Shown here: positions 21,001 through 30,000 of the stretch, piece by piece
How the letters are laid out: the number at the start of each line of letters is the position of its first letter
How positions within the stretch are numbered: position 1 is the stretch's first letter
NCBI GenBank assembly: GCA_964248365.1
Contig: CAXTYC010000036.1
Coordinates: forward strand, 1-52,749
Source: an uncultured Chroococcidiopsis sp.
Lineage (GTDB): Bacteria > Cyanobacteriota > Cyanobacteriia > Cyanobacteriales > Chroococcidiopsidaceae
DNA length: 52,749 nucleotides
Direction of reading: 5' to 3'
Program-made: the position numbers

Positions 21001-24000
21001 ATTGTTTGCACCAAAAAATATGATTCAAGGAAGTGTCAGTGCGCTCTCGTCGCCCTATACCGTAATCGTAGATGCAAGTAACCGGAAATCTCTGAATGTC
21101 AATCAAATAGGTAATTTAGCCCAAATTAATTCTTTACCAGCGCGCTTAGTTGGTTTAACCCAAGGAAATCGTTCAATTACTTCAGATCCTTTTGTTTTTA
21201 CCTCCTTAGACAATGCCAATGCTTATGCAAATTCTGGTCAAACTACCAGTTTGTCCTGTAAATTGCAATCCGGTTCAGAGGATATTCAGTGTACCAATAC
21301 TTTTAAGCAACTGGGGCAGGACAAGGCTTCTCCACCCAAAAAGTTAGCCGCCTCAGACACAATTACTTTTGTGTTAATCAAAGCTAAACCAGGTCAAGAT
21401 TTACAGGTATTGAAGCAAAGGCTAGAAGCCGCCATTCCTAATACTCGTGCTTTCACTCGAACCGAGTTGATTGAAAAGACTCAAAGGTTCTGGCAAAGGC
21501 GGACTGGTGTGGGATTTATCCTGGGCTTGGGGGCAGCAGTGGGTGTAATTGTGGGCGGCATTATTGTGGGTCAAATTCTCTATTCTTCCGTCTCTGACCA
21601 TCTCAGGGAGTTTGGAACACTCAAAGCAATGGGTGCGTCTGATTGGACTATATATGGTGTGATTGTAGAGCAAGCGCTTTGGATGGCTGTTTTAGGTTAT
21701 ATTCCTGGTATTATCCTTTGCTTTGGTGTGGCTGCTTGGACTTTTGCCACTCAAGGTATCGTAATTTTAATTACACCCTTGAGTGCGATCGCTGTTTTTG
21801 GCATCACGGTCGCAATATGCATCGGCTCCGCTGTGTTTGCAATTCAAAAAGTAACCCGCGTAGATCCGGCAATTGTATTCAAAGCCTGATGAGTGCAAAT
21901 CAAATAACTTTATCTACCTTTTTATATAGATGAACTTTTGAATGCATCTTCCTAAAGCTCTATCAGTATATTTAGTCAAAGCAGTAAAATATACAAACGA
22001 AATATAAATTAATAATTTGCTTCACCTGTCCAAGCTTGTTTGAAATTCAAACTTTACTCGTTAAAAATCTACAAGAATGACTGTTTCTTTAACCAAATTT
22101 ACTACTTCAATTAAAAACCGCAAAAAGGCTTCTGACACCTCAATCGGTTTAAATTATCCTGAAGCTGCTATTGTCGCCTCTGGAATAGAGATGACGTTCC
22201 AATCAGGAAAACAGTATTTTCAAGTCCTGAAAGAAATTGACTTAGAAATCAAAACGGGTGATATCCAACTGTTAATGGGACCTTCTGGTTCAGGCAAAAC
22301 TACTTTGCTGTCAATTTTAGCTGGATTAATGACACCAACTAAAGGTAATGTATACCTCCTGGGGCAGGAAATTACCAGGATGTCCAGAGAAAAGCTGGCA
22401 ACATTTAGACTCCACAACGTTGGTTTTATTTTTCAGGGCTTTAATTTATTTCCAGCTTTAACAGCAGCTGAAAATGTTGAATTAGTACTGAATTTTAAAG
22501 GTATTCGTGGAGAGACGGCACACAAACAGACAAAAATGTTACTCGAACAAGTTGACTTAGGTAGCCAGGCAAATCAGAAGCCTAGCGACTTGTCTGGAGG
22601 GCAAAAACAGCGCGTGGCGATCGCCCGTGCTTTAGCTGGTAATCCCAAACTGATCATGGCAGATGAGCCGACAGCTGCTCTAGATTCTCACAGTGGGCAT
22701 AATGTAATTCAATTACTACGTGCTTTGGCAAAAGAACAAGGCAGCACTGTCCTGATGGTAACGCACGATCCTCGGATTATTGATAGCGCCGATAGAGTCG
22801 CATATCTAGAAGATGGAATGCTGGGGAAGGGGCTAGGGGCTAGGGGCGCACGTGAGGACAAGGGGACAAGGGGACAAGGGGAGAATTGTTAATTCCTACT
22901 TTATCCTTCAGCCTTTATCCTTCATCCTTTATCCTATTGTTTTAACTATCTCTTGTAGAGTTTGTGAAACTGAACGGGGTCGCCAACCGAGTTCTTTACG
23001 GGCTTTAGCTGCATCCACACGCACACAGCGATCATAGACATAGTGAACTCTTTCCCGACTCAGGGGGGGTTGCCATTTCAATAAGCGTCCGATGGGATCG
23101 AGGATGTTTCCTGCTAGCCTGACAAGGGGTTTAGGGGCTTCGTGGGGAACTGGAATACCTGTTTCGTGGGAGAGAAGTTCAAACATTTCCCTCGTAGTTA
23201 AGTCACCAGCAGAAATGATATAGTGTTCTCCGATTGGAGCTTTTTCTGCTGCTAAAATCATAGCATTGGCTAAGTCGTCTACATGGACAATGCCAGTAAT
23301 GCGATCGCCCCCAGCCCACAACTTCAACCGCCCTTTGAGAAATTGCTGCATGACTGGACGAAAATGAGGATCGTCAGCGCCAAAAATCCCTGAAGGCATA
23401 ATGCTAACAACAGGTACTTGGGTGGCGAATTGATCTACTATTTGTTGCGCCTGGTATTTTGTGCTGTCATAGGCAGAAGAAAAGTTAGTTTGAGTGCGCT
23501 TAAAAGTTTCATCGATAACGTTGCCTCTTGTGTCGCCATAGATGCCCACTGTGCTACAATAAACAACTTTCGACACTCCTAATTCTTGGGCAACTTCCAT
23601 TACAGCGCGGGTTCCCTCTACATTCACCCGTGCCATTTCGGCGGCATTTACTAGCCCAAGCTCTACGTAAGCAGCTGTATGAAAGACTGTATCTACTCCA
23701 GACATTGCTTTTCGCAGTGCATTGCGATCGGTAATGTCTCCATATATTAACTGCGCTTGGGAATCAGCCAGCCTCGCCCTATTGCTAGATTTGCGAACTA
23801 AACCAATAACGCGATCGCCTCGAAGCTCCAAAGCCCTTACCAAATGAGAGCCTGTAAATCCATTCGCTCCAGTAACTAGCGCTTTCATAAGGCTTTTTCG
23901 TATATGCGGTAAGTCTTATAAATTTTACCGCCAGCAGCTTCGATTAGTTTACGGGAGGGATAGTTGTCTTCATAAACCCAAGAAAGCTCAGCCCGTTTAT

Positions 24001-27000: not shown

Positions 27001-30000
27001 TGGGCAGACGGACTTGGAAAAAGAAGTAGGCAAAAGATCGAGTTTCAGCAACACCTACTGGTAGTCGCATCAAATACAGGCTAGAAATTCCTTGCAGAGA
27101 ACTGTAAAAGTGCGGGTAGCGATAATGAGTTGATACAGGTAAGGTTGTCACCTGGTCAGCTCTTTCGCTTAGTCCTAAAAACTTAGCCATGCGACCTTTA
27201 TAGGAGACTTGATATTCAGCACAAACAGATCCTTCCGTCTGTTTTAAACTAATTAGCACTGGATCGAACCAACCCTGCAAGTTTTGATGCAAGAAACCAT
27301 GAAAAACATCCATCGAGTTGTCATTGCAAATCGAAAAATGTGCTTTGATGCGGGCAGGGATAGGAACCATGAACCAGTCAGGATTATCAAATTCTGGGAT
27401 TTCGGGTACAAAGCTGCTGGCAGCGAGGGCAGGATCGCCTGGGAAAATCCAGATGATATTATATTTTTCTTGGACTGGAAAACTACGGACACAGGCGCGG
27501 GGAAGTTTTTGGGAAGGGGGGAGGTAGGGAATGCTGACGCATTTGCCAGTGCCGTCAAATTCCCAACCATGATAACCACAAGCTAGGTGACAACCTTGGA
27601 CTTTGCCTTTGTGCAGTGCGACTCCTTTATGAGGACAAACATCCTCTAAGGCGTACAACTTACCTGCTGCATCACGATAAACTGCGATCGCTTGCTGCCA
27701 AATCACGACGGGCATAATATCACCTGGCTTAAGTTCGCTTGCCCAAGTGGCAGGATACCAGTAATTTGGGTTAATACCCACCTCACGGACAGCATTCTGA
27801 ACTGTCTGACTTGTCAAGGTCGTAGCCAGTTCCATGAATTTTTCCTCTCTTGCAGCGTTTTTGACAATATTTAGCTTACCAGTCTCCCTTAAAACGCTCA
27901 AATTGTCAGCATGAATCGAGACAGCACGCTAACTGTCCACTCTTGCTGGTTGGGAAATACAGATTACTCATCTAGGTAGCTGGGGAGATGGGGAGATGAA
28001 AAGAGGGGGAGAGTGGGGGAGTGGGAGATAAATTTATATCCATATGCTCTAGCCTCTAGCCTCTAGCCTAAGCGCCCCTCTAAGCTGGTTCCTCGCGCTT
28101 CTACTATCATGTAAGTCTATATGGCTAAATTTTCAACCACAAAAATTTCGGGTTTCTCCCCAAGAGGGCGTGAACTGAGGCTATTAATATTACTAGCGGC
28201 AGGTTCTCTAACTACTATGGCAGGGGGAGTTGTAGCACCAGTTTTGCCAGAAATTGTGCAACAACTCCATCTAGAGCCAAGGCTAGCAGCCAACTTGGTT
28301 AGTATGCATTGCTTGACGATCGCCCTATTTAGTCCTCCTCTGGGCATTTTGGCTGATCGCATTGGCAGGCTGCGGGTGTTAGTAGCCTCACTGGTTCTCT
28401 ATGCAGTGTTTGGCGTAGCAGGAGCGGGGATGACAAGTTTTTTGCCCTTATTAGTATCGCGGGGATTACTAGGGGCAGCAAGTGGGGGAATTGCCGCCGC
28501 TAGCTTGGGTTTGCTAGGTAGTATGTATGAAGGTAAAGCGCGATCGCAGGCTTTGGGTTACGCCACAAGTACCCTGACGATCACTGGCATTGTCTACCCC
28601 GTCTTGGGTGGTTTAGTTGGGGCGACGAATTGGCAGTTTGCATTTTATCTTTACGGTTTAGGGCTGCCACTAGCAGGGCTTGCAGCCTTAATTTTGAGGC
28701 AACCGTCGAGCCAGAGCAAAGCGGGGACTGGCGAACCAAGTTTTATGCTAAGACAAGTTTTAGGGCATCACCAGACTTTATGGCTGCTACTGACCTTGGG
28801 TGTAGCATCAGTTGTAATGTATACCGGAGTCACCTATGCACCACTGTACTATAAACAAGTAATCAAAGCAGGACCACTCGTTAATGGTATTATTCTAGCT
28901 TCGCGCGCGATCGGTGCTGCTGCTGTATCTGCCTTTGGAGCTAGACGCTTATCCCAAAGGTTGGGTTTAGCAAAAGCTACAGCCGTCGGTTTCGGATTGA
29001 TGGGTTTAACAATAGGCATCATTCCGTTATTGCGCCAACTAAATTTGATTATGCTAACAGCAGTGCTATTTGGCGTGGGATTCGGCATTGTTCTACCTAG
29101 TCTCTACGACGCTTTAGCAAACATGGCTCCGGCAAAGTTGCGCTCAAGTGTGCTAGCAGCTGGGACAGGTGCAGGCTTTTTAGGTCAGTTCCTTTCTCCT
29201 ATTCTTCTAGGATCAGTAATAAGTCATAGGGGATTACAAGGAGTATTTTATGCCGCTGCAACTTTATCAGTTGTTGCCGGAGCATTACTGCTGTTATTTG
29301 GTAGCAAGAGATTAGAAAATCGTCAAGGATGAAGGGAAATCAGTTACCAGTTACCAGTTACCAGTTAAGAGGAAAGGATGAAGGATAAAGGTTAAAGGAT
29401 GAAGGCGCTCATATTAAAATTTCAAATTTTACATTTCACACTTCAAACTTCATCTTTCAAACTTCACCCTTCAAACTTAATCCTTCAAACTTCACCCTTC
29501 ATACTTCAAACTTCATCCTTTCAGGCTTACCCTAGTCATCATCTTCGGGCAACCTAAATTCTTGCTCTACCTTAAGTCCAGCTAGAAAATTCCGGTCTTC
29601 GCTAATGTGAGGAAATTTCAACTGAGAATCTGGAATTCCCTTTTCTAACTGGCGTTGACGCAGGATAGCAAAGCTCCCAGAAGACAAAATTCGCAGTCTA
29701 GGGGGTGGAATTGGATCTTTGCGACTAATTTCGTAGTGGGTGTTAGCTTCTTGGAGTCTGCGGTCAAAACTAGCTAGGAAGGCTTGGGGATCGTCAAGCT
29801 TATAACCTGGGGCTAGCTCAATGTTCGCCAGATATCGGGCGGGGAAATCATTCTCTGATAAGGTAATACAAAAATCTTCTAATGGTATGCTAAATTTCCG
29901 TTGCATGGCTTGCATTACCTGAGTAGCATGGGCTTCTGTTGTCTTCTCGGTTGTCGAAGAAATTAGCCCGCCTGTACGGTGACGAAAGACAATTAGGGGA

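Follow-up and report, generated by a model that had tools for sequence, protein, structure and literature searches.

A 52,749-nucleotide stretch of DNA from an uncultured Chroococcidiopsis sp. (contig CAXTYC010000036.1; the whole stretch is called the window below) carries a gene module that probably represents a cyanobacterial variant of the bacterial kind of pathway for ceramide-type, N-acyl amino-alcohol lipids. The gene anatomy of the module, the family of its acyltransferase, the intact catalytic set of its alpha-oxoamine synthase (AOS) and the strict co-occurrence of three of its genes are established directly, and the sequences make a ceramide-like product likely. The first enzyme of the pathway is altered to such a degree that the amino acid in the lipid may not be serine. 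Passages of PMC8895605 state, as an earlier note on this DNA had quoted, that Nostoc punctiforme has only BioF and is without sphingolipids, and that just two ceramides are known from cyanobacteria, their genes being unknown. We found no report of a cyanobacterial occurrence of these genes in the literature, apart from what the 2022 bCerS and 2024 Black Sea papers may list in their distribution tables, and the novelty claimed in the note holds within the same bounds.

Organization of the gene module

The ORFs of the module (Table 1) were recovered at the positions previously given for them. On the minus strand the genes are transcribed in the order Rieske oxygenase, AOS, acyltransferase, SDR, so the Rieske gene, which had been described as following the trio, is by transcription the first and not the last. 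Its ORF is open to a TTG at 27901, and the gene probably starts at the ATG at 27835, giving the coordinates 26690..27835. The SDR and acyltransferase genes share a 4-base overlap. Pfam and NCBIfam searches assigned no family to the acyltransferase (380 aa) and detected no PKS/NRPS, regulator or receptor genes within the module. There is also no ACP or acyl-activating gene within the module, whereas such genes are present in E. coli and Caulobacter.

Table 1. Genes of the module and the adjoining transporter gene, with positions in the window.
Feature	Coordinates	Strand	Basis
SDR ORF, extended type	22929-23888	-	Pfam Epimerase 150 bits and 3Beta_HSD 118 bits
bCerS/YghO-family tandem-GNAT N-acyltransferase, candidate ceramide synthase	23885-25027	-	Homology to E. 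coli BL21 YghO
Alpha-oxoamine synthase (AOS), divergent, PLP-dependent	25174-26454	-	Pfam Aminotran_1_2
Rieske [2Fe-2S] non-haem iron oxygenase	26690-27901 (ORF)	-	Pfam Rieske 85 bits and VanA_C
MFS transporter, accessory neighbour	28121-29332	+ (divergent)	Pfam MFS_1 181 bits

Family of the acyltransferase and its gene neighbours

The middle gene of the trio belongs to the bCerS/YghO acyltransferase family. Residues 7-380 of its product align with residues 8-380 of E. coli BL21 YghO (29% identity, E 2e-54). YghO, which a passage of PMC9386255 describes as a homologue of Caulobacter CC_1154, was used as a stand-in for the Caulobacter bCerS (CCNA_01212) and links the window's protein to the Caulobacter enzyme indirectly. 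PF00583 matches 61 of the 68 aligned family members, and its score for the window's protein (19.2 bits) lies just below the cut-off of 20.7. The AF2 model of the protein (pLDDT 93.4) has a tandem-GNAT fold, with the tandem GNATs 7q3a, 2wpw and MshD as best fold matches.

In other phyla, the triad of AOS, acyltransferase and SDR is the rule. A full-length AOS lies at most 4 kb from an acyltransferase relative in 53 of 80 loci and an SDR at most 5 kb from it in 45 of 80, and for all 53 of these neighbouring AOS proteins the top NCBIfam model is Spt NF047600 (463-601 bits). Natural fusions join an AOS to this GNAT in P0173, P0205 and P0246, and the GNAT to an AMP-binding enzyme in P0213. The YghO cluster of E. 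coli BL21 holds a fatty acyl-AMP ligase, an epimerase-type SDR, an ACP and an annotated spt; a passage of PMC9386255 equates genes of this cluster with Caulobacter CC_1154, CC_1164, CC_1163 and CC_1162.

The SDR is a candidate 3-keto reductase from its resemblance to enzymes acting on lipid 3-keto and 3-hydroxy groups (OleD, 3-beta-HSD, HpnA). Its NCBIfam scores are all below cut-off (HpnA 204 bits against 368, SdmB 145 against 600, OleD 115 bits), and its identity to E. coli 'epi' is 24% (E 1e-17). Against the 45 SDRs that neighbour acyltransferase relatives in other phyla, the window's SDR has a median of 90 bits and E. coli epi one of 114 bits, while the 45 proteins among themselves have a median of 216 bits.

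The Rieske protein has its best PDB matches in DdmC, SxtDIOX and SxtT and reaches 238 bits on the NCBIfam SdmA type (cut-off 600). The MFS protein is possibly an exporter or a flippase.

Divergence of the alpha-oxoamine synthase

The AOS appears Spt-like in role, yet it is not a typical Spt and is not assignable to Spt, because its scores on the Spt models are below cut-off, its clade has a long stem and residues invariant in Spt are swapped. Among the NCBIfam models, bioF (TIGR00858) is the best with 238 bits (cut-off 426), and the Spt models give 179 bits (NF047600, cut-off 640), 168 bits (NF047599, cut-off 500) and 117 bits (NF047603, cut-off 670). The CqsA model gives 90 bits, and every NCBIfam AOS model scores under its cut-off. 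As reported before, the best PDB sequence matches are 3a2b and 8guh, which are Spt of Sphingobacterium (E 7e-41), ahead of the BioF and KBL structures (3e-34). The structure 28eh of a cysteate fatty acyltransferase (CFAT) matches more weakly (E 4.6e-28), and CqsA structures are found among the weak matches (E 2e-7).

A quick ML tree (57 rows) groups the cyanobacterial AOS proteins in a clade with a starred support of 100 and a stem of 3.16 substitutions/site. This clade joins the Spt clade, a PKS-fused AOS and one other divergent AOS through an unstarred branch (SH-aLRT 88), and the tree came with a warning of long branches meeting. The genome's separate, ordinary BioF, also described earlier, was found on another contig (G000:C47; TIGR00858 459 bits against 426); it shares 30% identity with the module's AOS, which falls outside the BioF clade.

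Residues of the 13 cyanobacterial AOS rows were compared with those of 28 Spt-clade rows, using the numbering of S. multivorum Spt and residue roles from passages of PMC10196870. The equivalents of the catalytic and PLP residues Asn52, His138, Ser185, Asp210, His213, Thr241, Ser243 and Lys244 are kept in 13 of 13 cyanobacterial rows, and so is a C-terminal Arg. According to the same passages, S. multivorum Spt holds the hydroxyl of serine through Asn52 and the PLP phosphate environment, both of which are kept in the cyanobacterial enzymes. Seven other positions are invariant in 28 of 28 Spt-clade rows and swapped in the cyanobacterial AOS: Tyr54 to Val/Ile, Gly77 to Ser, Phe272 to Gly, Ala274 mostly to Ile and, in the substrate loop, Gly80 to Ser/Ala, Ser81 to Cys/Thr and Arg82 to Ser/His/Glu. 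The exchange affects all 13 rows at Tyr54, Gly80, Ser81, Arg82, Phe272 and Ala274. Most KBL and BioF rows also carry the Spt residue at five of the seven positions (at Phe272 either Phe or Tyr), Gly80 and Ala274 being the exceptions.

Distribution and co-inheritance in Cyanobacteriota

Among 401 sampled Cyanobacteriota genomes, relatives of the acyltransferase were found in 56 at the loose threshold (E<=1e-10) and in 28 at the strong one (E<1e-140); the 28 strong genomes agree with the earlier note, and its wider count was 44 of 401. The rarity noted for family f5 (1 of 45 genomes) was seen again, with 1 of 45 at the strong and 2 of 45 at the loose threshold. Orthologues of the AOS, the acyltransferase and the SDR (E<=1e-60 for the SDR) occupy an identical set of 28 genomes; the remaining 373 are without any of the three at the thresholds used. 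Because they are common to the same 28 of 401 genomes, a functional tie between the three genes is supported. The co-occurrence holds without linkage too, as genomes G017 and G092 show. The carriers are scattered patchily over 23 of 156 genera, and the AOS is 70-86% identical across orders. A Rieske orthologue accompanies the trio in 21 of the 28 genomes, each time within ~2.1 kb of the AOS gene.

In 16 cyanophycean loci, the AOS gene adjoins the acyltransferase gene in 12, and the SDR lies in the locus in 10, the Rieske gene in eight and the MFS gene, adjoining the module, in nine. An earlier count in five relatives had the AOS in 5/5 and the reductase in 4/5.

Contigs of a biocrust metatranscriptome map on the SDR, GNAT, AOS and Rieske genes. 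They are a weak hint of expression, since carried-over DNA may also supply such contigs.

Proposed pathway and alternative functions

The chemical steps, chain lengths, amino acid and cellular role are what we infer from the encoded enzymes. A long-chain acyl thioester and an amino acid, by default guess serine (unproven), would be condensed by the AOS into a 2-amino-3-keto long-chain base, and the acyl donor is probably acyl-ACP. Activation of fatty acids by an acyl-ACP synthetase is described for cyanobacteria in a single sentence of PMC9386255, which names Synechocystis and Synechococcus. The tandem-GNAT enzyme of the bCerS/YghO family would then N-acylate the base, and the extended SDR would turn the 3-keto group into an alcohol. 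Where present, the Rieske oxygenase could introduce a hydroxyl (or a double bond) into the base or its precursor, and the MFS protein may carry the product across the membrane. The module had earlier been read as a complete Spt-bCerS-CerR pathway; the acyltransferase family, the co-occurrence in 28 of 401 genomes and the triad in other phyla support this in part, but the AOS is not assignable to Spt and the SDR is at most a candidate CerR. Our best explanation is weakened because the AOS fails all curated family cut-offs with bioF (238) above Spt (179), because its placement near the Spt clade depends on the unstarred branch, because residues invariant in the Spt clade are swapped, because the identity of the SDR to the CerR-type protein of E. 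coli is no more than 24%, because the module is without an ACP or acyl-activating gene, and because a divergent MFS exporter also fits a secreted small molecule.

On the strict reading, which is that of the note, the AOS would be a serine palmitoyltransferase proper, and the module would yield a canonical (dihydro)ceramide or sphingolipid built on serine. The match to the Sphingobacterium Spt structures, the tree position closer to Spt than to BioF/KBL (with the branch unstarred) and the preserved hold on the serine hydroxyl through Asn52 and the PLP phosphate environment speak for this. However, all three Spt models stay under cut-off with bioF scoring higher, and Gly80, Ser81 and Arg82 of the substrate loop, together with Tyr54 and Phe272, are exchanged in every cyanobacterial row. 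The cysteate acyltransferases, as passages of PMC13692747 describe them, are a precedent for the same scaffold, at ~30% identity to Spt, accepting a different amino acid in a remodelled pocket. Given that the general reading is correct, serine and another amino acid are about equally probable as the head; the strict version is a sub-case inside the general reading, its probability being the product of the two and not an addition, and we regard it as possible but doubtful.

Instead of a membrane lipid, the module might make a small molecule that diffuses or is secreted, with the MFS protein as its exporter; an example would be a signal or natural product of the medium-chain N-acyl amino-ketone or amino-alcohol kind. 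We consider this unlikely. The acyltransferase family is linked to Spt-type AOS genes over many phyla, the module is without PKS/NRPS, regulator and receptor genes, the CqsA model score of the AOS is low, and the strong conservation of the three proteins, with co-inheritance of the genes when unlinked, is what one would sooner expect of a housekeeping lipid function. On the other hand, the module has a divergent MFS gene as its neighbour in 9 of 16 loci, the AOS, with its remodelled pocket, falls into no known class, AOS enzymes also produce autoinducers (CqsA structures being among the weak PDB matches), and the patchy spread is like that of many secondary-metabolite clusters. It is highly improbable that the Rieske protein and the SDR form an SdmA/SdmB-like pair modifying a sterol or hopanoid, with the AOS and GNAT as unrelated neighbours. 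The best NCBIfam names would suit such a pair (SdmA for the Rieske protein, HpnA and SdmB for the SDR), but their scores are far under the cut-offs, and the SDR orthologue occurs without a Rieske orthologue in 7 of 28 genomes. Furthermore, the SDR gene overlaps the GNAT gene and shares 28 of 28 genomes with AOS and GNAT; it is the AOS gene (21/21), not the SDR gene, to which the Rieske gene is tied. The ceramide-type lipid pathway is the reading that we prefer.

Comparison with known systems

The Methylococcus sterol C-4 demethylase SdmA/SdmB likewise combines a Rieske oxygenase with a 3-beta-HSD-type SDR, but the cyanobacterial proteins are far below its cut-offs and the pairing of the two is not obligatory here. 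Cyanobacterial BioF (Npun_R3567 type) is of the same AOS superfamily and provides the top NCBIfam model, whereas the module's AOS lies outside the BioF clade in a genome that has its own BioF.

Sulfonolipid synthesis uses cysteate fatty acyltransferases (CFAT, SulA, CapB), a branch of AOS enzymes related to Spt. According to passages of PMC13692747, these enzymes keep the PLP scaffold but have a remodelled pocket for the amino acid at the dimer interface. The cyanobacterial AOS shares this pattern of a kept scaffold and a changed pocket; its PDB match to 28eh is weaker than that to Spt, and cysteate is not specifically indicated.

The module is most comparable to Spt-bCerS-CerR of Caulobacter crescentus (CC_1162, CC_1154, CC_1164), with which it shares the three enzyme types of AOS, tandem-GNAT and extended SDR, and to the E. 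coli BL21 counterpart, spt-acpR-epi-aasR plus yghO, whose acyltransferase is homologous over its full length. Its gene clustering is also like that of bacterial ceramide genes in many phyla. In contrast to both systems, the cyanobacterial AOS is a far-diverged lineage with swapped substrate-loop residues, and the module has no dedicated ACP or acyl-ACP synthetase gene. The window's SDR begins directly at the Rossmann motif, whereas Caulobacter CerR is reported as periplasmic in a passage of PMC11087976. The cyanobacterial module has an MFS gene in place of the LptF/G paralogues beside the E. coli cluster, and in 21 of 28 carriers it couples a Rieske oxygenase to the AOS gene.

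Gene Organization of the Module

The genes for the Rieske oxygenase, the alpha-oxoamine synthase (AOS, protein P0002), the tandem-GNAT N-acyltransferase P0001 and the extended SDR (P0003) are four minus-strand open reading frames arranged head to tail. Below, the last three are called the trio and all four the module, with the divergent MFS gene as an accessory neighbour. The coordinates and gene calls of the earlier note proved correct by open reading frame and family annotation, and its observation was confirmed; the Rieske gene, which it had placed last, is the first in the direction of transcription.

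Features of the module and its flanks in the window
Feature	Position	Strand	Remark
DevC-like permease and DevA-family ATPase genes (MacB-type ABC exporter)	20648-22892	plus	converge on the SDR gene
Extended SDR, P0003	22929-23888	minus	4-base overlap with P0001
Acyltransferase P0001	23885-25027	minus	380 aa
AOS, P0002	25174-26454	minus	
Rieske oxygenase	26690-27835	minus	frame open to TTG at 27901
MFS gene	28121-29332		divergent from the Rieske gene
Two paralogous GH3-family genes (acyl-acid amido synthetase type)	29532-31217, 32347-34035	minus (both)	beyond the MFS gene
Intergenic regions made up of short tandem heptamer repeats	22860-22935, 25050-25175, 27975-28070, 29340-29520		

Base composition is even over the module region, and a promoter and terminator scan gave no excess over shuffled sequences (9 vs. 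7.5 and 3 vs. 5.4, respectively). Directly upstream of the DevC/DevA-like pair a DevB-type gene is absent and RuvC is found instead. The two GH3 proteins show a weak likeness to OlsH, a lyso-ornithine-lipid synthetase (80 and 87 bits against a cut-off of 620). Since GH3 genes adjoin the module in 3 of 16 related loci, they may be connected with lipid N-acylation. The heptamer repeats include cagctaa (four copies), tagcctc (three), cagttac (four) and runs of ttcaaac/ttcaccc.

Co-inheritance of the Module Genes in Cyanobacteria

Of the 401 Cyanobacteriota genomes sampled, 28 hold a strong match of P0001 (E<1e-140), 28 an orthologue of the AOS (all E<=1e-202) and 28 an orthologue of the SDR (all E<=1e-125, nothing further down to 1e-60). 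It is the same 28 genomes each time, and they belong to 23 of the 156 genera. The trio co-occurs even where it is unlinked: the three genes lie hundreds of kilobases apart in one genome (G017), and in two others (G092 and G008) the SDR gene is megabases from the rest. An orthologue of the Rieske protein (59-78% identity) is present in 21 of the 28 trio genomes, always no more than about 2.1 kb from the AOS gene, and paralogues of 34-39% identity are common elsewhere, this genome included.

Neighbours of the acyltransferase gene were counted in 16 loci. The AOS gene is adjacent to it in 12, and the locus holds the SDR gene in 10, an MFS gene in nine and the Rieske gene in eight. GH3 genes and DevCA-like ABC genes, each found in only 3/16 loci, were rejected as module members. 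Together, the co-occurrence and the neighbour counts divide the module into two sub-units, Rieske-AOS and acyltransferase-SDR; all these counts are descriptive and carry no statistical test, because kin are not independent. Genus g18 (loci L036 and L037) has the AOS, acyltransferase and SDR genes without the Rieske and MFS genes, flanked by a conserved divergent classical SDR (220 aa), an unassigned 190-aa open reading frame and a Wza-like polysaccharide export gene.

The Acyltransferase and Its Relatives in Other Phyla

P0001 itself has no family match in Pfam or NCBIfam at E<=0.001. At E<=1e-30 its family has 973 representatives in a set of 1.84 billion proteins, and PF00583 (GNAT) matches 61 of 68 aligned members. 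The AlphaFold model of P0001 is a tandem GNAT (pLDDT 93.4, pTM 0.90), the top structural matches of which are MAB_4324, the clavulanate tandem GNAT, glucosamine N-acetyltransferase and mycothiol synthase. According to passages of PMC9386255, E. coli BL21 has the same five-gene set as Caulobacter, with yghO as the counterpart of CC_1154. P0001 aligns with YghO end to end (29% identity, E 2e-54), and the E. coli BL21 region contains yghO together with genes for a fatty acyl-AMP ligase, an epimerase-type SDR and an ACP, an annotated spt and then lptG and lptF paralogues. In that sphingolipid-type cluster (locus L126, NC_012971, 2989282-2997066) the latter are second copies of lptG and lptF; a 2026 preprint ties LPS-transport paralogues to sphingolipid transport.

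A search of species genomes with an 11-sequence alignment of the P0001 family gave 80 loci, mostly from MAGs, among them Zixibacteria, Ignavibacteria, Bacteroidota, Gemmatimonadota, Nitrospirota, a Bdellovibrionales and a Sulfitobacter MAG; Caulobacter is not represented. A full-length AOS gene lies within 4 kb of the P0001 relative, nearly always directly upstream, in 53 of the 80 loci, and an SDR gene within 5 kb in 45; missing AOS or SDR genes are not to be read as absences, since many contigs are short. For all 53 neighbouring AOS proteins the top match is the serine palmitoyltransferase (Spt) model NF047600, at 463-601 bits (below its cut-off of 640), which leads the next model by about 100 bits or more. 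Fusions also exist in metagenomes, of an AOS with the GNAT and of a GNAT with an AMP-binding enzyme. [quoted passage not shown]

Among 50 family members placed in a quick ML tree, the cyanobacterial ones group as one clade (starred support of 99, stem 0.9). Its sister group (SH-aLRT 94) holds all 31 rows from other phyla and YghO, and fused homologues of basal, non-photosynthetic Cyanobacteriota fall outside. By sequence and predicted fold, P0001 is a genuine bCerS-family acyltransferase. The fused homologues (about 30% identical) are parts of open frames 763 to 1247 aa long (loci L039, 8993-11959, and L042, 8802-11093; genomes G109, G112 and G124); elsewhere these frames match nothing in Pfam, and their surroundings hold no AOS gene. 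Named distant relatives come from Thermosulfidibacter and an Ignavibacteria MAG. In two metagenomic relatives (P0145 and P0234) a PilZ domain sits at the N terminus, a hint that in other bacteria the acyltransferase may be under c-di-GMP control.

A Strongly Diverged First Enzyme

The best PDB matches of the AOS are Sphingobacterium Spt (E 7e-41), which reproduces the serine palmitoyltransferase matches given in the earlier note. Every NCBIfam AOS model scores far under its cut-off on this protein, as on two orthologues: the bioF model gives 238 bits (cut-off 426) and the Spt models NF047600, NF047599 and NF047603 give 179, 168 and 117 bits (cut-offs 640, 500 and 670). Readings as a CqsA-type enzyme or KBL were dropped on score (90 and 185 bits). 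The second AOS of this genome is a proper BioF (459 bits). Elsewhere, at locus L142 of G017, a third AOS forms the C-terminal domain of a polyketide synthase in a 2746-aa open frame.

A quick ML tree was built from 57 AOS proteins, whose labels came from curated cut-offs, from E. coli annotation (Spt, KBL, BioF) or from a bCerS-family gene next to them. In it the 13 proteins from cyanobacteria group together (starred support of 100), and their stem measures 3.16 substitutions per site. This clade attaches to the Spt clade, to a PKS-fused AOS and to one further divergent AOS through an unstarred branch (SH-aLRT 88) where long branches meet; BioF and KBL fall in separate groups. With residue roles taken from part of the text of PMC10196870 (S. 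multivorum Spt numbering), all PLP and catalytic positions are kept in 13/13 cyanobacterial rows. Seven positions invariant in 28/28 rows of the Spt clade are replaced in the cyanobacterial clade: Tyr54 by Val or Ile, Gly77 by Ser, Gly80 by Ser or Ala, Ser81 by Cys or Thr, Arg82 by Ser, His or Glu, Phe272 by Gly and Ala274 mostly by Ile. Most KBL and BioF rows share the Spt residue at five of these (Phe or Tyr at Phe272), not at Gly80 and Ala274. On the amino-acid side of the pocket, small residues stand in for several bulky ones (Val for Tyr, Ser for Arg, Gly for Phe). Profiles, tree and residues all set the AOS apart from a typical Spt.

The SDR and the Rieske Protein

The SDR falls into the 3-beta-HSD/epimerase type, and its top curated names (HpnA, SdmB and OleD) are all under cut-off. 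With the E. coli CerR-type protein it shares 24% identity; in comparisons with the neighbour SDRs from other phyla, the median score is 90 bits for the window SDR and 114 bits for the E. coli protein. The SDR is therefore a candidate CerR orthologue at most, and a role as lipid 3-keto reductase would fit. The Rieske protein resembles monooxygenases, among them DdmC, SxtT, SxtDIOX and KshA. The reading of the two proteins as an SdmA/SdmB pair is disfavoured because the SDR occurs without a Rieske orthologue in 7/28 genomes and the Rieske gene tracks the AOS gene, not the SDR gene.

Metatranscriptome and Metagenome Contigs

In one biocrust metatranscriptome run, contigs lie on the acyltransferase gene and its junction with the SDR gene, and also on the AOS and Rieske genes; one of them is a 288-base AOS piece with three differences. 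This is a weak hint of expression, because DNA carry-over is possible and the organism is a relative. Each sequencing run covers a small share of the sampled words (0.45 at best), and therefore no habitat is named from them. In metagenome contigs, joints from 22882 to 28047 skip the whole module, as a deletion form lacking it would; this form was rejected and the joints read as repeat artefacts, since their sides are short (20-23 bases) and lie within the intergenic heptamer tandem repeats. These repeats attract very high metagenome-contig depth and produce false joints.

Discussion

The module represents the bacterial ceramide gene cluster in a cyanobacterial variant, with a strongly diverged first enzyme and a Rieske partner. 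The earlier note had proposed a complete Spt-bCerS-CerR type ceramide pathway in this Chroococcidiopsis, which is borne out in part: the acyltransferase is of the bCerS family and the reductase, a possible CerR counterpart, is strictly co-inherited, but the first step does not hold in the form of an ordinary Spt.

Our search of the full-text literature found no paper reporting sphingolipid or ceramide synthesis genes in cyanobacteria, and the tables of the 2022 bCerS paper and the 2024 Black Sea paper (38 to 40 phyla in the latter) may list cyanobacteria. Passages of PMC8895605 state that, as of 2022, no genetic basis or enzyme for cyanobacterial sphingolipid synthesis had been reported or characterised, and that the two cyanobacteria with reported sphingolipids seem to have extra AOS genes; these two are Scytonema julianum and Moorena producens. 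They also bear out the earlier note on Nostoc punctiforme, the single species examined, which has only BioF, no Spt and no sphingolipids. The module is a concrete candidate gene set for sphingolipid-type synthesis in cyanobacteria, and the trio distribution predicts which of them should make such lipids; most sampled members of the largest families would be without them. Close acyltransferase relatives carry the source names Chroococcidiopsis cubana, Aetokthonos hydrillicola, Microcoleus sp. FACHB-SPT15, Symplocastrum torsivum and Leptolyngbyaceae. Terrestrial or biocrust cyanobacteria might be traced by such lipids as biomarkers, a habitat link that is conjectural.

As the likeliest product we propose an N-acyl amino-alcohol lipid resembling ceramide, a reading we regard as fairly probable. 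Given such a product, serine and another amino acid have about even chances as the substrate of the AOS. Loading of a non-serine amino acid is suggested by the exchange of several bulky pocket residues for small ones. In this reading, which we hold much less likely than the ceramide-like product itself, the AOS would load another, perhaps larger or pre-hydroxylated amino acid, its obligate Rieske partner would act on it or on the nascent base, and the product would be an undescribed class of non-serine sphingoid-like lipids evolved from the ceramide gene cluster. If the head group is indeed non-serine, this would be a new branch of sphingolipid-like lipids beside the sulfonolipids, with a Rieske oxygenase recruited to long-chain-base chemistry. 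A precedent for a kept scaffold with a remodelled pocket, the pattern of the cyanobacterial AOS, is found in the cysteate acyltransferases, which according to part of PMC13692747 are about 30% identical to Spt, retain its scaffold and use another amino acid in a remodelled pocket; given this precedent and the conserved PLP and catalytic positions, the cyanobacterial AOS is very probably active.
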